A stretch of DNA of 64,000 bases. Source: Minisyncoccota bacterium (GTDB taxonomy: Bacteria > Patescibacteriota > Minisyncoccia > Minisyncoccales > JAQTPW01). Position 1 is the first letter of the stretch. Every line of letters begins with the position of its first letter. A program made the translations under genes and the position numbers. Below, piece by piece: positions 8,530 to 63,095 of the stretch. Location of the stretch: NCBI GenBank assembly GCA_028712565.1, contig JAQTPW010000001.1, positions 2,653 to 66,652 on the forward strand, in the 5' to 3' direction. The notes under the pieces are model-generated. The model was not told the DNA's origin, made no database searches, and worked only from the letters and a program-made list of their open reading frames with translations.

Positions 8530-8553
8530 CCGTACGTACGGATGTACGTACAA
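8530..8553. repeat. Two adjacent GTACGTAC-core palindromes
   Basis: CCGTACGTACGG followed by TGTACGTACA. Same core as 1249-1303 and same placement upstream of the shared promoter module. Confidence 0.8.
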
Positions 8554-8589
8554 AAATCGTCCTTCGGCGCGGCTCAGGGCGGTTTTTTG

Positions 8590-8618
8590 TTTACACTGAA
8601 TATGGTTAGGTGTAAGAT
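8590..8618 (+). promoter_or_regulatory. Conserved promoter module (copy 3)
   Basis: GGCGGTTTTTTG-TTTACA (8590-8595), 17 nt, TAAGAT (8613-8618). It is followed by a 10-codon ORF only, and the HD gene starts at 8690. Confidence 0.45.
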
Positions 8619-15696: not shown

Positions 15697-15840
15697 GCGC
15701 TTCGGGAAAGTAAGTTCTGGTACGCGCTTCGCTTGCCCAGCGTGCTCGCTCGCTCAGGTCCTCACCTCGCTCTTCCCTTCGGGAAACCATGCCCGCTCGG
15801 TTCCGGATCGTCCCAAAACTCACTTTCCCTCGCTTTGAAA
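15697..15840. repeat. GC-rich structured repeat, copy 1 (family 'R-eno/ftsZ')
   Basis: Outer arms GGGAAAGTAAGTTCTGG (15704-15720) and CCCAAAACTCACTTTCCC (15812-15829). The core shares a 36-nt identical block CCTCGCTCTTCCCTTCGGGAAACCATGCCCGCTCGG with 20788-20823. Confidence 0.85.
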
Positions 15841-16092
15841 AAGTGAAATGCGAAAGCGTGCCCCGAAAAGGCGGTTTTTGTTTTTGTGAAGGCTTGATTT
15901 TCCTTTCAAGTTTATTAAAATCTAAAATCATAGTAAATTAACAAATAAGGAGGAGTTAATGAGGATTGTAAACATTGAGAAGAATCGTCAAAGCCTCGCT
16001 ATTTTATGATGAGCGAAGACAAACAAATATGTAGACCTGCCTCGCTTATTTTTATTGTAAATTTAAATATGATAATATAGATAAATAAATAT

Positions 16093-20736: not shown

Positions 20737-20858
20737 ATTTTGTCACACATTCGCTCGCCCAGCGCGCTCGCTCATTCATGTTCTCGCCTCGCTCTTCCCT
20801 TCGGGAAACCATGCCCGCTCGGCTCCGGATGGAGACAAAATTCACATTCCCTCGCTTA
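20721..20858. repeat. GC-rich structured repeat, copy 2 (family 'R-eno/ftsZ')
   Basis: Perfect 18-bp arms GGGAATGTGAATTTTGTC (20727-20744) / GACAAAATTCACATTCCC (20834-20851) around a core homologous to 15721-15811. Confidence 0.9.
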
Positions 20859-20986
20859 AAAAATATATTTTAAAACCTTATTGCTTCGCTTTTCAAATGT
20901 GACAATTCGCCGGCGAGGTGCTCCATTGAAAAGCTTCACCCTCGCTTGAGTAACGAAAAATTTATTGACTCGCTTTTTAAATTAAT

Positions 20987-21023
20987 CCGTTCCGGATGGA
21001 GACAAAATTCACATTCCCTCGCG
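20987..21023. repeat. Partial third copy (3' arm) of the same repeat
   Basis: TCCGGATGGAGACAAAATTCACATTCCCTCGC (20991-21022) duplicates 20824-20855 exactly. Degenerate CCTCGCT-containing fragments lie between the two. Confidence 0.85.
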
Positions 21024-23979: not shown

Positions 23980-23991
23980 TTAATTTAAAAA

Positions 23992-24026
23992 CCCCGCCCC
24001 TTCGACAAAGCTCAGGGCGGGGTTTT
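23992..24026 (+). terminator. Rho-independent terminator with conserved loop
   Basis: CCCCGCCC / GGGCGGGG stem, loop CTTCGACAAAGCTCA, then T4. Confidence 0.8.
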
Positions 24027-39159: not shown

Positions 39160-39250
39160 ACGCTGATACGAGTCGCTTCGGCGACTGTCGCTGATTAACG
39201 CTGATATTTTTCAGCGTAAATCTGCGTAGATATCTGCGTAAAATCTGCGT
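39160..39250. repeat. Short repeats ACGCTGATA x2 followed by inverted ATC(A/T)GCGTA units in the 16S leader
   Basis: ACGCTGATA at 39160-39168 and 39198-39206. TCAGCGTAA at 39211-39219. TCTGCGT(A) at 39221, 39233 and 39244. The same unit recurs in frame in a CDS at 59381-59418. Confidence 0.8.
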
Positions 39251-40620
39251 TTTTTTTGAGGATTTGATCCTGGTCCAGGATGAACGCTGGCGGCGTGGAT
39301 AAGGCATGCAAGTCGTGCGGCCTGAGTCGCAAGACGAAGGCAGCGGCAAACGGGTTAATAACACGTAGATTACCAACCCCAATCACGGGCATAATCCGCC
39401 GAAAGGCGGACTAATTCCCGATGGTCCGCGCGGGCGTAAGCTTTGCGCGGTAAAGACGTAAGTCGGAATGGGATGGGTCTGCGGCCCATCAGCTAGTTGG
39501 TGAGGTAAAGGCCCACCAAGGCGATGACGGGTAGGGGGGATGAGAGTCTATTCCCCAACAAGGACACTGCGACACGGGTCCTACTCCTACGGGAGGCAGC
39601 AGTCGAGGATATTCGGCAATGGGCGAAAGCCTGACCGAGCGACGCCGCGTGAACGAAGAAGGACTTCGGTCTGTAAAATTCTTTTCTAGGGGATGAACCC
39701 GCAAGGGTGACAGTACCCTAGGAATAAGGGGGTGCAAATTCTGTGCCAGCAGCCGCGGTAAGACAGAACCCCCAAGCGTTATCCGGATTTATTGGGCGTA
39801 AAGGGTCCGTAGGTGTCCCATCGCATCTTTTGTTAAACTTTCAAGGCTCAACCTTGGAAATGCGAAAGACATGGATGGGATTGAGGGCATTAAGGGCTGA
39901 TGGAACGGTCGGTGTAGGGGTGAAATCCGTTGATATCGATCGGAACACCAAAAGCGAAAGCATTCAGCTAGGGTGACCCTGACACTGAGGGACGAAAGCG
40001 TGGGGAGCAAAAAGGATTAGATACCCTTGTAGTCCACGCTGTAAACAATGAACACTAGCTATCTGAAGTGTCGACCCTTCGGGTGGCGAAGCCAACGCAT
40101 TAAGTGTTCCGCCTGGGAAGTACGATGGCAACATTAAAACTCAAAGGAATAGACGGGGACTCACACAAGCGGTGGATCATGTGGCTCAATTCGACAACAA
40201 ACGAGGAACCTTACCAGGACTTGAAAAGCTAGTGAAATCCGCCAGAAACGGCGGACTACCCACAAGGACACTAGCCCAGGTGCTGCATGGTTGTCGTCAG
40301 CTCGTACTCTGAAGCGTACGCTTAAGTGCGATAACGAGCGCAACCCTTATTGTTTGTTTTATTTGTCAAACGAAACCGCCCGCGATAAGCGGGAGGAAGG
40401 TAAGGATGACGCCAAATCAGCACGGCCCTTTGATGTCCTGGGCTGCACACATGATACAATGGGGCTGACAATGGGTTGCCAAGCCGTAAGGCGGAGCTAA
40501 TCCCATCAAACGGTCCCTCAATTCGGATTGAGGTCTGCAACTTGACCTCATGAAGCCGGAATCGCTAGTAATCGCCAATCAGCTATGTGGCGATGAATAT
40601 GTTCCTGAGTCTTGTACTCA

Positions 40621-41480
40621 CAATAAAAGCGCTCGGCAGTTTATTTTTCTATGCGGTTAAAATCCGCGCCTCTAGCCGTCCTAGAGAGTAGCCAAAGGAT
40701 AGTTTGTTACCGCGAGGTAATAAGCGAAGGATTCGGCGGCAAAAGACAGCCCGAACAAAAAAAGGCAAACCGACCCATCAATGAGCGGTGAGGATGGGGA
40801 AGGTCAAAGTAAAGCCTGTTTGGGATGCCCGGAAGAGAAAATTAAATAACCCGAGGAGATCTGACGTTGTTGCCATGAAAATTGCATGGTATAATGAACT
40901 TACGCAGCGTCAGAAGTCAGCTGAATCATAGTAACCTGAGTCCTAAATTTATAAAAGGACAAAGGAGAAGGATTCACTCTAGTAATTATGCTTAATCCTA
41001 ATTATATCGTAGGTTTAGTTGATGGAGAGGGAAGCTTTACGGTGTACGTAAGGCAACCTAATTCTGCCAAGAAAGTAAAACGAAGAGCGAGAGCGGAACC
41101 AAGATTTTATCTGAAACTTATAGAGAAAGATAAAGATATTCTCTATATGATCAAAAGATTCTTTTCTTGCGGAAGCGTTTATTTCCAGAAAGATAATCGT
41201 ATAAACCATCAAAATTGTTATCGATACGAAGTGGCAAACAGAAAAGATTTGGAAGAAATTATTATTCCTTTTTTCAAACGGCATCAACTGAAATTATTGT
41301 CGAAGAAAAAAGATTTCCGGATTTTCTGTGAATTAATGAGAAGAATTAAAAAAGGAGAACATCATACGAAATTAGGATTACGGCATTTATATCTTATAAA
41401 ACAAGGTATGCATTAGAGCTCGTCGCATGCGGGAAATCTGCAGGTGCGATGGGAACATCAACTCTAAGTTCGTAGAGGAT
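40621..41480 (+). mobile_element. Intron (probably group I) in 16S at the site equivalent to E. coli ~1395-1400
   Basis: Conserved ..CTTGTACTCAC stops at about 40621 and ..CTCGCCCGTCACGCC resumes at about 41482. The junction is ambiguous over a repeated ACTC (+/-6 nt). The insert carries a LAGLIDADG ORF. Confidence 0.8.
40988..41416 (+). CDS. LAGLIDADG homing endonuclease (single-motif, I-CreI-like)
   Basis: 142 aa. ..NYIVGLVDGEGSF.. motif, basic DNA-binding saddle. Located inside the 16S intron. Confidence 0.88.
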   Translation: MLNPNYIVGLVDGEGSFTVYVRQPNSAKKVKRRARAEPRFYLKLIEKDKDILYMIKRFFSCGSVYFQKDNRINHQNCYRYEVANRKDLEEIIIPFFKRHQLKLLSKKKDFRIFCELMRRIKKGEHHTKLGLRHLYLIKQGMH

Positions 41481-41804
41481 ACTCGCCCGTCACGCCAAGC
41501 GAGCTGGGAATAGCCAAAGTTCTCCGCAAGGAGACCTAAGCTGGGCTCAGTGAGAGGGGCGAAGTCGTAACAAGGCACGCGTAGGGGAACCTGCACGTGG
41601 ATAAATTATTTTTTTCTAGTATTTCTTAATGAGATACTAGAGTCGACTAAAGTTGAAGGGCGAAAATTTTCTCTTTAACTTTAAGGTGTTAATCTCTAAC
41701 CTAAAATAAAGATTCCTTGGTCTCGCGGAACGAGACCCGGGACAACTCTAAAGGACTAAATCGTGGAAACTAGTAACTGGTTTACTAGTAACTAGTAACA
41801 AACT

Positions 41805-41824: not shown

Positions 41825-41860
41825 GGTTTGATAGAAGTTCGGGTTTGGCGATATACCCGT

Positions 41861-41896
41861 ATATTATTAACATAGCTATCGCTTGGTTAGTAATAT
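41861..41896 (+). promoter_or_regulatory. Conserved hairpin/promoter-like motif, copy A (ATAGCTATCGC family)
   Basis: ATATTATTAAC-ATAGCTATCGCTTG-GTTAGTAATAT. Can also be read as TTAACA, 18 nt, TAATAT. Confidence 0.55.
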
Positions 41897-41902
41897 TCTG
41901 TA

Positions 41903-41999
41903 TTAGTTGGTAATTTTAATGTTTTGGTTTGGCGATTCGAAAGTAAGGTCCTAGCCAGTCCAAGGAGAGATTTCCAATTATTTCTCCTTTTTCTTTTTA
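41903..41999 (+). ncRNA. Candidate small RNA (about 95 nt) between motif A and a terminator
   Basis: Lies downstream of the -10-like TAATAT (41891-41896). Ends in a 9-bp hairpin AAGGAGAGA/TTTCTCCTT (41962-41989) followed by TTTTCTTTTT. No family recognised. Confidence 0.25.
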
Positions 42000-42335: not shown

Positions 42336-42400
42336 TGTTTTTAGAGATAAATTATCGCAAAAATTTTTCCATTTTTTTTGCTACAATATCTGTAGCACCA

Positions 42401-42437
42401 TATATTATTAATATAGCTATCGCCTAGATAATAATAT
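42401..42437 (+). promoter_or_regulatory. Conserved hairpin/promoter-like motif, copy B
   Basis: TATATTATTAAT-ATAGCTATCGCCTAG-ATAATAATAT. Confidence 0.55.
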
Positions 42438-42614
42438 TTGATATTTACTGATTAAAATTAGTGATGTTTTATTGTAGCTTGTTTTTTTAATTATTTTTTG
42501 TTAAAATCTTAAATTGAAAGTTAAATTTTCTATATGCCCCGCAGTAGAATTTTGAACCCTACGGAGGCGTATAAAATTTTTTCTAAATTTTAATTCAAAA
42601 TTCACTGACAGGGT

Positions 42615-43082
42615 ATGCAAATACCGGCAAAAATTTTAAAATTCTTGGATTCGAAAAAGATAAAATATGTTGTAATAAATCATAGGACAGTTTATACTGC
42701 TTATGATAAAGCCACGACGTTGAAGGTGAAACCGAATGTGATTGGAAAGACACTGGTTTTGAAAATAGATTCCAACTTAATTATGGTTTTGGTGCCGGGA
42801 AATAAAAATTTGGATTTGTCAAAAATAAAAAAAGCAGTTGGTGTCCAAAAAATTAATATAGTTTCTGAAACGATTATAAAAAATAAATTCAAGGGAATAA
42901 AAATCGGCGCGATTCCGCCAGCGGCGGAAATTTGGAAATTACGGATATTTATTGATAATAATTTGATGAAAGAAAAAAATATTTTTGTAAATTCGGGAAT
43001 TTACGAAGCATCATTCAAATTATCGCCAAAAGTTTTCGAAAAGTTGGGAGCGGTCGTGGGAAATTTTGGCAAACCCCGTTAG
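42615..43082 (+). CDS. YbaK/ProX-type aminoacyl-tRNA trans-editing (deacylase) domain protein
   Basis: 155 aa. ..VIGKTLVLKID..LIMVLVPGNKNLDLSKIKK.. layout of the YbaK family. The stop codon TAG lies inside the arm of repeat T2 (CCCCGTTAG). Confidence 0.65.
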   Translation: MQIPAKILKFLDSKKIKYVVINHRTVYTAYDKATTLKVKPNVIGKTLVLKIDSNLIMVLVPGNKNLDLSKIKKAVGVQKINIVSETIIKNKFKGIKIGAIPPAAEIWKLRIFIDNNLMKEKNIFVNSGIYEASFKLSPKVFEKLGAVVGNFGKPR

Positions 43083-52609: not shown

Positions 52610-52675
52610 ATTTAAAGTAGACGTATTCCCCCTTAATTTTTATTAGATCGAATATAATAATATTTTGTAAAATGC

Positions 52676-52715
52676 GTATATTACTAACATAGCTATCGCC
52701 AAGATAGTAATATAT
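52676..52715 (+). promoter_or_regulatory. Conserved hairpin/promoter-like motif, copy C
   Basis: GTATATTACTAAC-ATAGCTATCGCCAAGA-TAGTAATATAT. Abuts or overlaps ATG 52714 of the PaaX-like gene. Confidence 0.6.
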
Positions 52716-53304
52716 GATATACGAAAGTATGAGTAAATATAAATATTATTTTAGAAAACCAAGATCGGAAATTATAAAAGATTTTTTAAACACGCTACTA
52801 GTTGCGGGCACCATTACGATTGCCGCTTCTTCTCCTTATTTTATTGTTAATTTATTAAAAGCCAATAAAAGTTTTAGGCGGTATCCAAAGCCGAGGATTG
52901 CCGATACTTTCGCGCGTTTGAAAAGGGAAGGATTAGTAGAAACCGTACGGCGTAATGGACAAATTTATATAAAACTTACTGATAAGGGAGAAAAGAAAGC
53001 CGGTTTTTACCAAATTAATAGTTTGAAAATAAAAAAACCGAAAAAATGGGATGATAAATGGAGAATTGTTATTTTTGATATTTCTGAGCTAAAAAGAAGC
53101 CACCGGGAAGCTTTTCGAGGAAAATTAAAGGAATTAGGATTTAAATCTCTTCAAAAAAGCGTTTGGGTGCATCCTTTCCAATGTAAAGATGAGATAGCGC
53201 TCCTGCGTGATTTTTTCGGTTTGGAAAAAAATGATATTCGCATAATAGTTGCCGAAGAAATCGAAAATAGCGCCGATTTAAAGAAATATTTTCTTCTTAA
53301 TTAA
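52714..53304 (+). CDS. PaaX-like regulator: TM segment + winged helix + PaaX/Cas2-fold domain (paralog 1)
   Basis: 196 aa. ..FARLKREGLVETVRRNGQIYIKLTDKG.. (wHTH) and ..WDDKWRIVIFDISELKRSHREAFRGKLKELGFKSLQKSVWVHP... The start may be ATG 52729. Confidence 0.65.
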   Translation: MIYESMSKYKYYFRKPRSEIIKDFLNTLLVAGTITIAASSPYFIVNLLKANKSFRRYPKPRIADTFARLKREGLVETVRRNGQIYIKLTDKGEKKAGFYQINSLKIKKPKKWDDKWRIVIFDISELKRSHREAFRGKLKELGFKSLQKSVWVHPFQCKDEIALLRDFFGLEKNDIRIIVAEEIENSADLKKYFLLN

Positions 53305-53335
53305 CACATACGGTTAATTAACTACAAAATAACAA

Positions 53336-53375
53336 AATATTGTTAACATAGCTATCGCCTTGTTAATAATATATT
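53336..53375 (+). promoter_or_regulatory. Conserved hairpin/promoter-like motif, copy D
   Basis: AAATATTGTTAAC-ATAGCTATCGCC-TTGTTAATAATATATT. Confidence 0.55.
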
Positions 53376-53416
53376 GTTTTGTTGTTTGTTAATACTAGAT
53401 ATTGGATATATTGAAT

Positions 53417-57553: not shown

Positions 57554-58948
57554 ATGCCCGTTTTTTTAAATATAATTGGACTTCTGCTATTTATAAAGCT
57601 GTTTCTTTTCTGGCTGTGGCTTTGGCAATTGAAAGAATATCATATTGGGCGTTTTCTAGCCCATTTTGAAACTCAGGCAATAACTAAAATTATTTCCAGC
57701 TTTTGGAGGATAAAACTTCCTAAATTTACCGGAAAAACTGCCGTAATTTTTATTTCTGAAATCATTGCTGCAACAGCGCTCTCCCTATATTTTAAATTCG
57801 CAATTCTATTTTTAATTTTATTTGCTCCGGTTTTTTCCTCGGCAATTGTTCTGCTTTTTCAAATTCCAACAGTTTTTTTGAGAAACCGGATTATTAAAAA
57901 AGCCAAGATAAAAATTAGGCAATTCCCAAATCTTTTGGTAATAGGCATTACGGGAAGTTATGGCAAAACTTCAACAAAAGAATTTTTGTATTCGATTTTA
58001 TCGGAAAAATTCAAAAATAAGGTTTTAAAGACGAAAGAACACCAGAATTCGGAAATTGGGATTTCCCAGTGCATTTTAGCGGATTTGGAACAAGAGCATG
58101 AAATTTTTATAGTTGAAATGGGAGCTTATAACAGAGGGGGAATAAAAATGCTTTGCGATATTGTAAGGCCAAAAATAGGCATTTTAACTGGAATTAATGA
58201 GCAGCATATGTCGACATTCGGATCATTAGAAAATATAATTAAAGGAAAGTATGAGTTAATTGAATCATTGCCCGCAGACGGAGTTGCATTTTTCAATGCG
58301 AAAAATAAATATTGTTTAGAACTTTATAATGAAACTCTTCGACGGCTCCCAGTGAAAGCGATTTTGTACGGACAAAATGCTACTTTTTTTGGCGAGGAGA
58401 ATATTTTAGGAGCAATGGCAGCCGCAAAAGAATTAGGAATGGCTGACGCTGAAATTAAAGCCGCGGTCGATAGAATTGAAAACAAGATGCCGGGAATTAA
58501 AATTAAAGAGGGGATTGGCGGCTTAAAAATTATAGATGCTACTTATTCGGCAAACCCGGATGGAGTAATTGCTAATTTGGAATATTTAAAAAATAATTTT
58601 TCCGGGAAAAAGATTATTGTTATGCCATGCTTAATAGAACTTGGTAAGGCGTCAAAAGAAGTTCACACAAGAATCGGTAAAAAAATCGGAGAGGTCTGTG
58701 ATTTAGCAATAATTACAACAAAAGATTATTTTAAAGAAATTAAAGAAGCCGCCTTCGCTTCCGCCATCGCTGAAGCTATGGCGGGCAAAGAAGCTACGGC
58801 GAGCCAAAGGAAGCCAGAAATTCTGTTTCTCGAAAATCCGAAAGAAATTTTTGCGAAAATAATGGGCGTTGTGAAAGAGGGAGATGCAGTTCTTTTGGAA
58901 AGCAGAGTGCCTAAAGAGGTGGTTGAACAGTTAACAGGAAGCAGTTAA
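57554..58948 (+). CDS. murF: UDP-MurNAc-tripeptide--D-Ala-D-Ala ligase with N-terminal membrane extension
   Basis: 464 aa. About 110-aa hydrophobic N-terminus, Mur ligase P-loop ITGSYGKTSTKEF. Contains a GC-rich in-frame insert near the C-terminus. Confidence 0.85.
   Translation: MPVFLNIIGLLLFIKLFLFWLWLWQLKEYHIGRFLAHFETQAITKIISSFWRIKLPKFTGKTAVIFISEIIAATALSLYFKFAILFLILFAPVFSSAIVLLFQIPTVFLRNRIIKKAKIKIRQFPNLLVIGITGSYGKTSTKEFLYSILSEKFKNKVLKTKEHQNSEIGISQCILADLEQEHEIFIVEMGAYNRGGIKMLCDIVRPKIGILTGINEQHMSTFGSLENIIKGKYELIESLPADGVAFFNAKNKYCLELYNETLRRLPVKAILYGQNATFFGEENILGAMAAAKELGMADAEIKAAVDRIENKMPGIKIKEGIGGLKIIDATYSANPDGVIANLEYLKNNFSGKKIIVMPCLIELGKASKEVHTRIGKKIGEVCDLAIITTKDYFKEIKEAAFASAIAEAMAGKEATASQRKPEILFLENPKEIFAKIMGVVKEGDAVLLESRVPKEVVEQLTGSS
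58747..58815 (+). repeat. GC-rich repeat inserted in frame in murF
   Basis: GCCGCCTTCGC..GAAGCT..GCTACGGCGAGCCAAAGG encodes AAFASAIAEAMAGKEATASQRK. It shares blocks with the 42-bp unit at 59622-59742. Confidence 0.75.
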
Positions 58949-58960
58949 CAATTAACAAAA

Positions 58961-58991
58961 AAATGCCGTCGTCAGAAGACGGACGGCATTT
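58961..58991. terminator. Bidirectional terminator between murF and the minus-strand orphan
   Basis: AAATGCCGTCGTC-AGAA-GACGGACGGCATTT (13 bp, one bulge), with an A-run before and a T-run after. Confidence 0.8.
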
Positions 58992-59012
58992 ACGACGAAG
59001 TGCTTAAACGTA

Positions 59013-59228
59013 TTATTTCTTCTCTATGACTTTAACTCGGAACCAAAATGTTTCGTATGGGTTTCTCCAACCGGTCGGAATCATAATACATGCGCAGCCG
59101 TATTGTTTTAGACTTTCAAATAGCTGCTCCATCGATTCCGGGATTTTCGATAGATCCATACCCGTAATGTCTGGCGTCAAAGACATTGTTAAGCTTCCGT
59201 CTTTTTCTGCTACTATTTTCGCATTCAT
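59013..59228 (-). CDS. Hypothetical small protein (orphan), strong SD
   Basis: 71 aa. On its own strand AAGGAGGTATGAA precedes the ATG. Lone minus-strand gene. Confidence 0.55.
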   Translation of the reverse strand: MNAKIVAEKDGSLTMSLTPDITGMDLSKIPESMEQLFESLKQYGCACIMIPTGWRNPYETFWFRVKVIEKK

Positions 59229-59266
59229 TTCATACCTCCTTACAGAAAAATAATATTACATAAATA

Positions 59267-60739
59267 ATGTTTTGTCAATATTTAAACCCAAAACCAATAT
59301 CGATTTCTTTGTCTCCTAATACTGAAAAGGATGATATCCTATTGGCTTTTAAGTTGCTTTGGAAACCTTGGCGATGGAAATTCAGCGTAAATCAGCGTAA
59401 CAATCAGCGTCAATCAGCTTCTACGATTTTAGAAGAGGAATTTAAAAAATATTTGGGAGTAAAATATGCCATATCATTTAACAGCGGGAGGTCGGCGTTG
59501 ATGGCAATATTGGCTGCTCTTTTCGGAGAGCAGGCATCCTCCGAAGCCTTGGCGAAGGAGGATGAGGAGGTTCTTTTACAAGCCTTCACTTGTAACGCAG
59601 TTCCAAATCCGGTTATTTGGTCCCGCCTTCGCGAGGCCGAAGCTCGCTACGGCGAGGCAAAGGCCCGCCTTCGCGAGGCCGAAGCTCGCTACGGCGAGGC
59701 AAAGGCCCGCCTTCGCGATGACGCTTCGGCGAGGCAAGCAGGCTTGAAACCTATTTATGTAGATTGCAACGAAAATACATTTAACATTGATCCAGAAGAT
59801 TTAAGGCGTAAGATTACGTCAAACAGCCGCGCCGTAATAGTCCAGCACACTTTCGGTTTGCCCGCAGAAATGGATGAAATTATAAAAATTTGTCAGGCAC
59901 ATAATTTAATATTAATTGAAGATTGCGCGCATTCTTTAGGTGCTACCTATAAAGGAAAAAAGATCGGAACCTTCGGCAGAGTTTCATTTTTCAGTTTTTC
60001 CAGAGATAAAGTAATTTCTTCAGTTTACGGCGGAATGGTAGTTACTTCTGATGATGAACTTGCAAAAAAAATTAAGGAATACCAGGAAAGAATCGGTTAT
60101 CCTTCATATTTTTGGATTCTTCAGCAATTATTGCACCCTGTATTAATGAATTGGCTTATTTTGCCAACATATAAATATTTTGGAAAATATTTATTGATTT
60201 TATTCCAATGGCTTCACATTTTTTCAAAAGCCGTCCATTGGAAGGAAAAGAGGGGGCAAAAACCCTGTTATTTTCCAAAGCGTTTACCAGATGCCTTGGC
60301 AATTTTGGCTCAAAACCAATTTCGGAAATTGGAAAAATTCAACCGGCATCGCCGGGAAATCGCCGAATTTTATAATCGCGAATTAGCCGATACCAGCTAC
60401 CAGCTACCAGTTACCAGCGACGGCGACATTTTCCTTCGTTATGCAATAAAACATCCGAACGCTCATCAAATTATTCAGAAGGCATGGAGTCATAATCTAT
60501 TGGTTGGGGATTGGTATACAACGCCGATTGCTCCGCATGATACTAAATTAGAAAAAATGCAATATACTTTAGGGAGTTGCCCAAATGCGGAAAAATTGGC
60601 AAAAATTACATTAAATTTGCCGACTCATATTAATATTTCGGTGAAAGATGCCCAAAAAATCGTAGACTTTTTAAAAAAAATAAGTAAAAACAATAAAGAC
60701 CATAATACGATTTCCACGGCCGTAGAAAAAGTATTATAA
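59267..60739 (+). CDS. DegT/DnrJ/EryC1/StrS-family PLP aminotransferase carrying several in-frame repeat insertions
   Basis: 490 aa, against my recollection that this family is usually about 370-400 aa. ..ISFNSGRSALMAIL.., ..LIEDCAHSLGATYKGKKIG.., ..FFSFSRDKVIS.. (PLP Lys context). Confidence 0.85.
   Translation: MFCQYLNPKPISISLSPNTEKDDILLAFKLLWKPWRWKFSVNQRNNQRQSASTILEEEFKKYLGVKYAISFNSGRSALMAILAALFGEQASSEALAKEDEEVLLQAFTCNAVPNPVIWSRLREAEARYGEAKARLREAEARYGEAKARLRDDASARQAGLKPIYVDCNENTFNIDPEDLRRKITSNSRAVIVQHTFGLPAEMDEIIKICQAHNLILIEDCAHSLGATYKGKKIGTFGRVSFFSFSRDKVISSVYGGMVVTSDDELAKKIKEYQERIGYPSYFWILQQLLHPVLMNWLILPTYKYFGKYLLILFQWLHIFSKAVHWKEKRGQKPCYFPKRLPDALAILAQNQFRKLEKFNRHRREIAEFYNRELADTSYQLPVTSDGDIFLRYAIKHPNAHQIIQKAWSHNLLVGDWYTTPIAPHDTKLEKMQYTLGSCPNAEKLAKITLNLPTHINISVKDAQKIVDFLKKISKNNKDHNTISTAVEKVL
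59381..59418 (+). repeat. In-frame short tandem repeat (A)ATCAGCGTAA
   Basis: TTCAGCGTAAATCAGCGTAACAATCAGCGTCAATCAGC encodes FSVNQRNNQRQS. Same unit as in the 16S leader (39211-39250). Confidence 0.8.
59525..59570 (+). repeat. In-frame GC-rich palindromic insert
   Basis: CCTCCGAAGCCTTGGCGAAGGAGG folds as CCTCC/GGAGG plus GCC/GGC. Encodes ..ASSEALAKEDE.. between conserved AILAAL and EVLLQAFTC. Confidence 0.65.
59622..59742 (+). repeat. In-frame 42-bp GC-rich tandem repeat (2 full units plus a diverged third)
   Basis: CCCGCCTTCGCGAGGCCGAAGCTCGCTACGGCGAGGCAAAGG at 59622-59663 and 59664-59705, with a diverged copy to about 59742. Encodes RLREAEARYGEAKA x2. Confidence 0.9.
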
Positions 60740-60749: not shown

Positions 60750-61280
60750 ATGAAATTTCCAGTTACCGATAGATTTTTATGGGATTTATATGATTTTCTT
60801 GAAAAGGCAGGTGATATTTATGATGTTTTTTTGGCACGACCCTGGAAAGAAGTTTGGTCTCCGGAACTTCACAAATTTAGATATGAATGGAAGAAAAAGA
60901 AGGATCGAAAATTATTCAGTCGGCTTGTTTATTATTTAAAAAAGAAAGGGTATATAAAGACTAAAAATTTAGAGGAAAAAGAAGCTGTTTTGTTAACAAG
61001 GAAAGGAGCCGATAAGATTTTGAAATTGAAACTTAAAGAAAGTAATAAAAAGAAAAGACCAGACGGAAAGTGGCAAATGGTAATTTTTGATATCCCCGAA
61101 AGAAAGCGTTTTTTAAGAGATTTACTTAGAGAAAATCTTTATCTTTTAGGCTATCAACTGTTGCAACAAAGTATTTGGGTTTGTCCATATGATGTTTCAT
61201 ATAAAACAGAAATAATTCTCAATAAATATTCCCTTGATCAATACGTAAAAACATTTTTAATTAAAGAAATAGAAGTATAG
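60750..61280 (+). CDS. PaaX-like regulator with wHTH + PaaX/Cas2-fold domain (paralog 2)
   Basis: 176 aa. ..LVYYLKKKGYIKTKNLEEKEAVLLTRKG.. and ..PDGKWQMVIFDIPERKRFLRDLLRENLYLLGYQLLQQSIWVCP... Confidence 0.65.
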   Translation: MKFPVTDRFLWDLYDFLEKAGDIYDVFLARPWKEVWSPELHKFRYEWKKKKDRKLFSRLVYYLKKKGYIKTKNLEEKEAVLLTRKGADKILKLKLKESNKKKRPDGKWQMVIFDIPERKRFLRDLLRENLYLLGYQLLQQSIWVCPYDVSYKTEIILNKYSLDQYVKTFLIKEIEV

Positions 61281-61313
61281 TACGATTTCCACGGCCGTAG
61301 AAAATGTATTATA
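61281..61313. repeat. Right copy of the 33-bp direct repeat
   Basis: TACGATTTCCACGGCCGTAGAAAATGTATTATA, starting immediately after the stop of the PaaX-like gene. Confidence 0.9.
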
Positions 61314-62024: not shown

Positions 62025-63095
62025 ATGGATTTATCAATTTCAGAAATATCAGATAAAAATACTTGGGAGGAATTTTTGGCAGGTATTAAAGAAAAAACTT
62101 TTCTGCAGTCTTGGAATTGGGGAGAATTTCAGAAAAAAATGGGAAACTCCACCCAAGGTGGGTCCGCCTCGGGCGGAAAAATTTGGAGATTAGGGATATA
62201 CGAAGAAAGAAATTTAATTGCAGCTATTTTAGTTTCTAAGGTGGTCGCAAAGAGAGGAATTTTTCTGTTACTACAGCATGGGCCAAATGTAAAAAATGAA
62301 AGATCAAATATCAAAAATCAAATAATGGCTGTTTTATTGGGGAAATTAAAAGAAATTGGCAAAGAAGAAAAAGTTGATTTTATACGGATTGCACCATTGT
62401 TTGATGATTCAAAAGAAAATCTAAAAATATTTCAAGATTTGGGATTTCATAAATCTCCAATGCATGCCAATGCCTATGAGGCGACGTGGAAATTAGATAT
62501 TTCCGTCTCCGCGGAAGAAATTTTGAAAAACATGCGGAAAACCACTAGGTATTTGATAAGGCAGGCAGAGAAAAATCCGGAAATTAGCATTGAAACCAGT
62601 ATAAATTTTCGTGATTTAAATCTTTATTTTGATTTAAATCGTCAGGTTGCCAAGCGGCAAAATTTTACGCCGTTTTCTGAAGAATATATAAAAAATGAAT
62701 TTAATTCATTCATAAATGACAATGAGGTATTGTTACTATTTGGGAAATATAAAAATGAGCTAGCCGCTGCAGCTATGGTAATTTTTTGGCAGGGGATTGG
62801 CTTTTACCATCAAGCGGCATCTCTTTCAAAATTTGCAAAACTTTCTATTCCTTATCTGTTGCAATGGGAAGCAATAAAAGAAGCAAAAAAAAGAGGATGT
62901 ATTTTATATGATTTTTGGGGGTTCACTGATCCTGAAAAATACCCTAAACATCCCTGGGCAGGGCCCACTTTATTTAAAATGGGATTTGGAGGTTTTGCAA
63001 AAGAACATATAAAAACCCAGGATTTCCCGCTTTCAAAAAAATACTGTTTAATTTATATTTTTGAGCAGATTCGAAAAATAAAAAGAGGATTTTAG
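62025..63095 (+). CDS. FemAB-family peptidoglycan interpeptide-bridge aminoacyltransferase
   Basis: 356 aa. ..FLQSWNWGEFQKKMG.., ..RYLIRQAEKN.., ..GFYHQAAS... Carries a small GC-rich insert. Confidence 0.8.
   Translation: MDLSISEISDKNTWEEFLAGIKEKTFLQSWNWGEFQKKMGNSTQGGSASGGKIWRLGIYEERNLIAAILVSKVVAKRGIFLLLQHGPNVKNERSNIKNQIMAVLLGKLKEIGKEEKVDFIRIAPLFDDSKENLKIFQDLGFHKSPMHANAYEATWKLDISVSAEEILKNMRKTTRYLIRQAEKNPEISIETSINFRDLNLYFDLNRQVAKRQNFTPFSEEYIKNEFNSFINDNEVLLLFGKYKNELAAAAMVIFWQGIGFYHQAASLSKFAKLSIPYLLQWEAIKEAKKRGCILYDFWGFTDPEKYPKHPWAGPTLFKMGFGGFAKEHIKTQDFPLSKKYCLIYIFEQIRKIKRGF
62148..62177 (+). repeat. In-frame GC-rich double-hairpin insert in the femAB-like gene
   Basis: CCACC-CAA-GGTGG and TCCGCC-TCG-GGCGGA. 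Encodes ..STQGGSASGG.. between the conserved ..EFQKKMG and KIWRLGIY... Confidence 0.65.

Follow-up and report, generated by a model that had tools for sequence, protein, structure and literature searches.

We analyzed a 64,000-nucleotide stretch (hereafter the window) of contig JAQTPW010000001.1 from a Minisyncoccota bacterium, in which short GC-rich repeats lie in frame within the genes for a MurF-type Mur ligase, a DegT-type aminotransferase and a FemAB-family peptidyltransferase. The source genome was sampled as this 64 kb window, which has a GC content of 37.5%, contains an rRNA operon and carries most of its genes on the plus strand. The three genes belong to a conserved run, LysRS-SerRS-hydrolase-MurF-DegT-FemAB-FtsQ, and the same order was found in five syntenic loci of related Patescibacteria (L001 and L003-L006; L numbers denote loci from other genomes, and P numbers denote DegT orthologue proteins). 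A metagenome-assembled genome (MAG) named 'Candidatus Pacebacteria bacterium' encodes a protein with 100% identity to the DegT protein of the window. The inserts in MurF and DegT share one design, named family 1; that in FemAB is not family 1 but comes from another dispersed family, named family 2. The host genes and inserts are given below, with scores from R1, a covariance model built from 65 family-1 copies in other genomes.

57554..58948, plus strand: host gene for the MurF-type Mur ligase (Pfam Mur_ligase_M and Mur_ligase_C, conserved gene order)
58748..58810, plus strand: outer family-1 copy in MurF, GCCGCC-TTC-GCT[...]AGC-TAC-GGCG-A-GC-CAAAGG (architecture scan; R1 40.8 bits, E = 2e-9)
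58759..58791, plus strand: second family-1 copy, sitting within the loop that the outer MurF hairpin forms (sequence reading; full-length R1 alignment 14.7 bits)
59267..60739, plus strand: host gene for the DegT/DnrJ/EryC1-type aminotransferase, 490 aa (Pfam PF01041 in three separate stretches)
59535..59564, minus strand: family-1-type element at DegT site 2, whose outer stem, CATCCTCC/GGAGGATG, is compensated (architecture scan, partial R1 match of 11.2 bits)
59622..59705, plus strand: two identical 42-nt family-1 units at DegT site 3, inner stem GCGAG/CTCGC (tandem repeat search, architecture scan, R1 42.5 bits)
59706..59738, plus strand: third family-1 unit at DegT site 3, 33 nt, inner stem GCG/CGC (R1 41.6 bits)
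62025..63095, plus strand: host gene for the FemAB-family peptidyltransferase (Pfam FemAB and Acetyltransf_6)
62148..62177, plus strand: family-2 element, mini-hairpins CCACC-CAA-GGTGG and TCCGCC-TCG-GGCGGA, read as STQGGSASGG (orthologue comparison, folding)

In DegT, a preliminary description of this DNA had reported a 42-bp repeat with a diverged third copy. The 42-bp unit is indeed an exact tandem pair (59622-59663 and 59664-59705; no matches in 100 shuffles) that encodes RLREAEARYGEAKA twice. The supposed third copy is a related unit with the same ends, but it is a separate 33-nt unit with another inner stem and centre, and it is probably the original insert at this site. Together, the site-3 units add 39 residues that are absent in 17 of 17 aligned orthologues, and the whole array folds with a z-score of −2.1. 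The empty site is clean: seven orthologues read TGG TCN GGN where the window reads TGG TC[C CGC...GCA] GGC, and comparison with empty sites revealed no visible target duplication at the site-3 junctions. In P0012 and P0047, a single 30-nt unit (RLRQGFGGQA) occupies exactly the position and frame of site 3. At site 2, between AILAAL and EVLLQAFTC, where an insert had also been proposed, the segment 59535-59564 is extra relative to most orthologues. Forward copies occupy this site in P0118 and P0009, and a reverse copy, the orientation also seen in the window, is present in P0030. R1 further found independent DegT copies in L127 (two, one per strand), L128 (reverse) and L005, and across 120 DegT orthologues we observed dozens of short hairpin-type inserts at about 20 sites or more.

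The earlier estimate that DegT is about 100 aa longer than usual was too high, the excess over its closest orthologues (407-435 aa) being about 65-80 aa; some 12 extra residues form a C-terminal tail encoded by another palindrome (60702-60738). In a mediocre AlphaFold2 model (mean predicted local distance difference test score 64), the inserts appear as low-confidence segments (residues 40-47, 89-98 and 106-159) between core helices and strands, and Protein Data Bank homologues align only around the inserts. The inserts may be surface loops, as the preliminary description had proposed.

In MurF, the block at 58747-58812, earlier placed at 58747-58815, had been described as a relative of the DegT unit translated partly in a different frame. 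The two have CCGCCTTCGC in common, plus 17 of the 18 bases of GCTACGGCGAGSCAAAGG, and both arms of the MurF block are read in a frame other than that of DegT. Within the block, the nested copy has about 79% identity to the outer unit and makes a net addition of 30 nt; with this copy taken away, what is left in MurF is one canonical unit, resembling the single units in L018 and L005. The block contributes about 20 extra residues at a variable site, at which L004 and L006 have none and L005 has one shorter related element.

The double mini-hairpin insert reported in FemAB (30 nt, 10 aa) is absent in all five orthologues compared, has a folding z-score of −2.2 and shows no target duplication at its junctions relative to empty sites. 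Its 22-nt core has exact matches in six metagenome contigs of 37-62% GC: it is read in frame as GGSASGG in SMC and DnaJ, it occupies intergenic positions too, and it is found right where a superoxide dismutase (SOD) reading frame begins, perhaps 5' of the true start. The first hairpin carries a compensatory change, being CCACC/GGTGG here versus CCCGCC/GGTGGG elsewhere.

Other small hairpin elements were seen in the window and in related genes. A mini-hairpin, TTCCGCC-AGC-GGCGGAA (42913-42929), lies inside an open reading frame (ORF) at 42615-43082 and resembles the second FemAB hairpin. A 57-nt in-frame element with two hairpins (TEPR..KVKKR.K.S.P) is present in the DegT gene of P0118 and in the FemAB gene of L003. 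A 48-nt GEEDKSSSSPFAAARE unit occupies one DegT site in six orthologues and is duplicated at another site in P0009. These last two elements have the hairpin GAAGAGGA/TCCTCTTC in common. In-frame hairpin families of this kind were recorded at L127 992-1072, L003 5318-5398 and L005 10100-10225, and a recurring one in DegT orthologues reads GEEDKSSSSP.. in translation.

The inserts had been judged by eye to be far more GC-rich than their host genes, and the codons agree with this: GC content at third codon positions (GC3) is 0.59-0.77 in the inserts versus 0.27-0.34 in the host genes, the ATCAGCGTAA tandem run described below (45% GC) being the exception. Arginine is encoded by CGC in the inserts and by AGA in the host. 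Since GC3 is high too and arginine is CGC rather than AGA, amino-acid composition was ruled out as the cause of the GC richness. The claim that the inserts keep the reading frame also held, all measured lengths (30, 30, 33, 42 and 42 nt) being multiples of 3 and stop-free in the host frame. Peptides predicted across the inserts, as read from the sequence, are EAEARYGEAK, ATASQRKPEILF and GGSASGGK.

These lengths bear on whether the inserts are removed before or during translation, either as RNA intervening sequences or by ribosomal bypass of the 'byp' type. The GC clusters and byps of yeast mitochondria are likewise GC-rich palindromic mini-elements that invade coding genes of an AT-rich genome, and rRNA genes of the Candidate Phyla Radiation (CPR) have intervening sequences, the 16S gene here containing an ORF with a LAGLIDADG-type motif. 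However, the ribosome skips byps, so that frame is not needed, whereas all inserts here are in frame, and the downstream frame is kept in every family-1 copy within a CPR gene. Only for translated inserts would one expect such a multiple-of-three constraint, and we therefore regard removal or bypass as very unlikely.

One design, CGCC-TYC-GC[variable stem-loop]GC-TAC-GGCG-AGSCAAG, is common to the block in MurF, all three units of DegT site 3 and the element at site 2. Its outer stem is (C/G)CCGCC...GGCG-A-G(G/C); inside this come a 3x3 internal loop, TYC/TAC (GTAG...GAA on the other strand), and an inner stem-loop that covaries freely, and the tail is CAAG. An architecture scan of the 64 kb retrieved six copies only (the outer and nested MurF copies, the three site-3 units and site 2), compared with 0-1 per shuffle, and R1 scored the main window copies at 41-42 bits. 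GC-TAC-GGCG is found in the outer MurF copy and the two 42-nt units, and TTC (GAAG) in unit 3, site 2 and the copies of L127, L128 and L135. The inner stems remain complementary in nearly all copies despite their differing sequences, with 150 Watson-Crick pairs versus 6 mismatches, a feature that lies outside the search pattern. One outer pair (alignment columns 2/33, the base before CCGCC versus the S of GAGSCAA), likewise left free by the pattern, covaries, being CG in 40 copies and GC in 22, with 3 exceptions. Rfam gave no match at the elements at gathering thresholds, and chance-level matches only at E up to 10.

Two terminator-like hairpins of the window (23989-24025 and 8551-8590) have a loop, CTTCGACAAAGCTCAGG, that resembles the family-1 core CTTCGCCAAGGCTACGG; therefore, the intergenic terminators and the intragenic elements may be related.

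We asked whether the family extends beyond this locus, using a pattern derived from the window and L005 copies, in which TAC was imposed. At least 119 matching stretches were found in species-representative genomes, a lower bound from which abundances and taxon shares are not to be taken as quantitative; the chance expectation is below about 5, even were the whole database GC-rich. Among the matches listed, the CPR groups were Paceibacterota, Kaiserbacteria, Saccharibacteria, Moranii-, Staskawicz-, Wildermuth-, Magasanikii- and Berkelbacteria, and those outside the CPR included many Vicinamibacterales and other Acidobacteriota, Verrucomicrobiota including Opitutaceae, Delta- and Gammaproteobacteria, Planctomycetota, Cyanobacteriota and a Bradyrhizobium. 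Family-1 type repeats also occur outside genes in several other bacterial phyla. No pattern matches were found in viral contigs, and a plasmid collection gave chance-level partial matches only.

In the sampled CPR genomes, a large share of the copies is intragenic, and other CPR loci hold about 1-3 family-1 copies per 8 kb around an ascertained copy. In-frame hosts in the CPR are GyrB, MetRS, IF-2, RecG, Tgt, DnaK, BipA, RluD, an M16 peptidase and a FemAB-like protein. All three frames are used, giving for example AASAEATASQ, PASAQGYGEAK and RLR..LRRGK, and for copies deep inside long ORFs, sense outnumbers antisense by about 16 to 1. A protein-domain origin was rejected, since one DNA sequence is read in three frames. 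The alternative offered earlier for refutation, that orthologues carry the same segments as conserved protein, does not describe what we found: the DegT site-3 and FemAB inserts are absent from orthologues, the MurF and DegT site-2 inserts are variable, and the same families recur in other genes and genomes in different frames, as dispersed repeats rather than domains.

Insertion sites are shared in several cases: DegT site 3 with P0012 and P0047, MurF with L005, and GyrB and MetRS sites across classes, the GyrB copies of L011, L018 and L019 lying at one site and the MetRS copies of L023 and L056 at one site. Both re-insertion at hot spots and old inserts with precise loss could produce this pattern.

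Near base-for-base conservation of the element across phyla points to another explanation, in which the hairpins are kept for a role at the RNA or DNA level (mRNA stability, an RNase site, a translational pause, or binding of gyrase or another protein) and the peptides are by-products. The perfectly complementary inner stems, the covarying outer pair, the sense bias and the similar loops of the terminator-like hairpins all agree with it, as does a GyrB element that is 100% identical in L011 and L019 though the flanking codons differ; repetitive extragenic palindromic (REP) sequences elsewhere are also thought to be RNA elements in passages of PMC3733652. Yet at any given site most orthologues are without the element, its positions vary among genes, and no Rfam family matches it. 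The stems show no excess of G-U wobbles, the mismatches being too few to separate RNA from DNA selection, and the conservation is partly forced by the search method. Overall, we consider such a role unlikely to explain the inserts.

Dispersal also bears on two simpler accounts. The inserts might be lineage-specific expansions of low-complexity loops by local replication slippage, with no dispersed family involved; the exact 42-bp duplication is a slippage-type event, the window copies all lie within 1 kb, and the TACCAGC and ATCAGCGTAA runs described below are simple tandem repeats. This account is contradicted, unless the cross-genome matches are contamination, by the recurrence of one 30-nt sequence in genes and genomes that are not related, where frame and orientation both vary. 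The codon usage of the inserts is foreign to the host genes, and ortholog comparison found no inserts in the neighbouring LysRS and SerRS and only ordinary AT-rich indels in the hydrolase and FtsQ. Slippage alone is thus highly improbable. The other account, an artefact of assembly or binning through chimeric reads or misassembled repeats, is the least credible of all. The window does come from a MAG, and exact tandem repeats are error-prone in short-read assembly, for which reason the copy number of the 42-bp unit (2 versus 1 or 3) is uncertain. Nevertheless, the inserts are in frame, their flanks are continuous coding sequence, and many assemblies produced independently by different projects contain related copies, some at these sites and some elsewhere.

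We compared the elements with known systems. The preliminary description had likened them to Rickettsia palindromic elements (RPEs), reportedly described by Ogata et al. in 2000, of which RPE-1 is said to be about 100-150 bp long and restricted to Rickettsia. The likeness holds for the manner of insertion: here too, a palindromic repeat lies in frame in essential genes of a reduced genome, is absent in orthologues and adds a tolerated extra peptide, and the several frames and the dispersal agree. Membership of an RPE sequence family was rejected on size (30-42 nt) and host (CPR); as the two are described, the present elements are set apart by their length, their GTAG/GAAG type and their presence in distant phyla.

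A closer parallel is provided by GTAG/CGTC-tagged REPs. Passages of Di Nocera et al. 2013 (PMC3733652) place these REPs inside ORFs of several species, chiefly Opitutus terrae, often in DNA-repair and tRNA-related genes; they also describe some REP families as species-specific, and RPE-4 and RPE-6 as shorter, CGTC-type REPs of Rickettsia. Such REPs are GC-rich stem-loops of 20-40 nt in which a GTAG-type motif stays unpaired next to the stem, with GAA lying opposite. They occur as singletons, tandem groups and clusters, and some lie wholly inside ORFs (tRNA synthetase and DNA-metabolism genes), encoding 10-40 extra residues. Family 1 resembles them in these respects, its units of 30-42 nt with complementary inner stems and a covarying outer pair corresponding to the 20-40 bp stem-loop, and it has Verrucomicrobia/Opitutaceae among its carriers. 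It differs in adding a conserved outer stem around the GTAG hairpin and a CAAG tail, in reading GAAG for GTAG in several copies, and in an inner stem that is free to vary while the outer sequence is conserved across phyla. It also differs in its large intragenic share in the sampled AT-rich CPR genomes, and no cognate REP-associated tyrosine transposase (RAYT) was found for it in the window and CPR loci searched. Family 1 therefore answers only in part to the description of the GTAG-REP superfamily.

The REP/RAYT systems (REPtrons and REPINs) are comparable in that their hairpin repeats are presumed to be moved as single-stranded DNA (ssDNA) by a domesticated Y1/HUH transposase with no target duplication, and in that CPR genomes have hairpin-bracketed RAYT-like genes. 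They differ in that the hairpins flanking those genes are not family 1, that no RAYT lies in the window, and that REPINs are usually species-specific inverted pairs, of which none was seen here. MITEs (miniature inverted-repeat transposable elements), whose families are reported to be largely confined to a genus or species, were rejected, there being no target-site duplication at DegT site 3 or FemAB and a single hairpin rather than terminal repeats around a core. We found no literature report linking REP-type elements to CPR/Patescibacteria or containing the element sequence, and the supplements of PMC3733652 lack the family-1 sequence.

Taken together, the inserts in MurF, DegT and FemAB are probably REP-like short (30-42 nt) selfish palindromic elements of at least two dispersed families, whose in-frame copies have been kept. 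The copies belong to recognizable families, are absent from orthologues, are read in several frames, lie in both orientations, re-use sites, are spread across phyla and have foreign codon usage. We infer both active selfish mobility in this genome and neutrality for the host proteins. In such a scheme, copies would insert seamlessly in DNA, with no target duplication and presumably without regard to reading frame, and selection would retain the in-frame copies in permissive loops. The survivors in essential genes would be those with a length that is a multiple of three, no stop codon and a permissive loop as their site, and they would be translated as short peptides rich in Ala, Gly, Arg, Glu, Lys and Ser. 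After arrival, an element could expand by tandem duplication, as in the doubled 42-bp unit of DegT, or when one copy inserts itself into the loop of a second, as in MurF.

The mobilizer would most likely be a Y1/HUH transposase of ssDNA, of the RAYT or IS200 type, acting in trans. The sense bias would fit insertion in the lagging-strand template if genes are co-oriented with replication, and selection at the mRNA level would fit equally. In favour of such an enzyme, a Y1/HUH RAYT-like protein of about 225 aa is widespread in the CPR, in at least 703 protein clusters, the named ones being from Paceibacterota and Kaiserbacteria; it matches NCBIfam REP_Tyr_transpos (E = 5e-5) and Pfam Y1_Tnp only weakly, at scores under the curated cut-offs. 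A tblastn search over all loci detected two RAYT-like genes, in L118 and L011, and no family-1 copies flank either of them. Also in favour, the RAYT-like genes of L011 (6868-7618), L136 (9896-10680) and L138 (9969-10707) each have a genome-specific perfect hairpin on both sides, in a REPtron-like arrangement, and in these three genomes they lie in conserved chromosomal neighbourhoods, adjoining gyrB or rnc.

Several points weigh against the view of the inserts as mobile selfish elements. A tblastn search of the window with E. coli RayT and two RAYT-like proteins found no RAYT/Y1 gene, and R1 found no family-1 copy beside the RAYT-like genes of L011, L136 and L138. Because the hairpins flanking the CPR RAYT-like genes examined differ, no enzyme is linked to family 1. 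All six copies in the window cluster in a single kilobase across two adjacent genes, the rest of the 64 kb having none, and local duplication could account for part of this clustering. The shared sites could also mean that the segments are old and were inherited vertically, not inserted recently. Several copies read GAAG in place of the GTAG tag, and since the genome-scan pattern came from the window, most of the conserved columns of the model are conserved by construction. The palindromic character claimed for the inserts is borne out by the folding of the FemAB insert and of the whole DegT array, but not by that of single units, whose z-scores (−0.3 to −1.0) are no better than those of shuffled GC-rich sequence; for this reason, the case for structure rests on architecture and covariation. 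Finally, translation of the inserts is a prediction from their open frames.

A bolder proposal is that the family of about 30 nt moves between phyla and, in the tiny CPR genomes, would be a major and still active supplier of new loops to essential proteins, inserting seamlessly at favoured sites by an ssDNA mechanism, or that it has a conserved nucleic-acid function, which would account for its conservation across phyla. We consider this doubtful; if there is an inter-phylum route, it might run between CPR episymbionts and their hosts.

Three further repeats occur within the DegT gene.

59381..59418, plus strand: ATCAGCGTAA-type tandem repeat of about 10 nt, a separate family (Tandem Repeats Finder)
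60391..60418, plus strand: TACCAGC repeated four times (Tandem Repeats Finder)
60702..60738, plus strand: 37-nt near-palindrome forming the last 12 DegT codons and the stop (repeat search, 95% identical to a twin at 61277-61313; alignment of the C-terminal tail)

The first two had been listed with the inserts. The reported match of the ATCAGCGTAA run to the 16S leader is real (18 of 20 bases identical to 39210-39229), but the run is neither GC-rich nor palindromic (45% GC, folding z = +1.3) and is partly common to orthologues, several of which have related ISINQ..KSA peptides at this site. For these reasons, we rejected it as a member of the hairpin system and regard it as a different repeat. 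The TACCAGC repeat, previously placed at about 60398-60425, lies at 60391-60418 and was rejected as an insert or part of the system because orthologues have the same length there, with similar residues.

The 37-nt near-palindromes form direct repeats (60702-60738 and 61277-61313) on either side of a PaaX_M/Cas2-like gene (60750-61280). L003, the closest relative, has the same cassette, there with a perfect 36-nt palindrome, in the interval that separates DegT from FemAB; since L001, L004, L005 and L006 lack it, it looks like an inserted cassette.

Elsewhere in the window, the 16S rRNA gene (39252-41603) appears interrupted: the Rfam match ends at 40651 and 3'-end sequence lies near 41530-41603. 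The gap holds the ORF with the LAGLIDADG-type motif (LVDGEGSF; 40988-41416, 142 aa), a frequent feature of rRNA genes in the CPR. Directly 3' of ftsZ and of enolase lie two copies, 86% identical, of an intergenic GC-rich repeat some 114 nt long (15728-15841 and 20750-20863); a partial third copy is at 20986-21022, and the repeat is distinct from the insert families. A 48-nt AT-rich repeat occurs four times with 77-81% identity, two copies being in the 16S-tRNA-Ile spacer region (41857-41904 and 42398-42445) and two downstream of the rRNA operon (52674-52721 and 53333-53380). A 12-nt tandem repeat, GTACGTACGCxx, with self-complementary CGTACG cores, spans 1249-1303 in about 4.6 copies.

CPR genomes are very small and have little room for selfish DNA. 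If REP-like hairpins regularly lie within genes such as those for GyrB, IF-2, MetRS and MurF, the elements would be an overlooked and significant source of protein-length variation and of new surface loops in a very large radiation. They could then mislead annotation, alignment, phylogenomic trimming and structure prediction, and could serve as markers of recent insertion or excision. A 30-nt element of defined architecture that several phyla share, and for which no Rfam family or paper was found, makes it directly testable by what means REP-type elements are mobilized or maintained.

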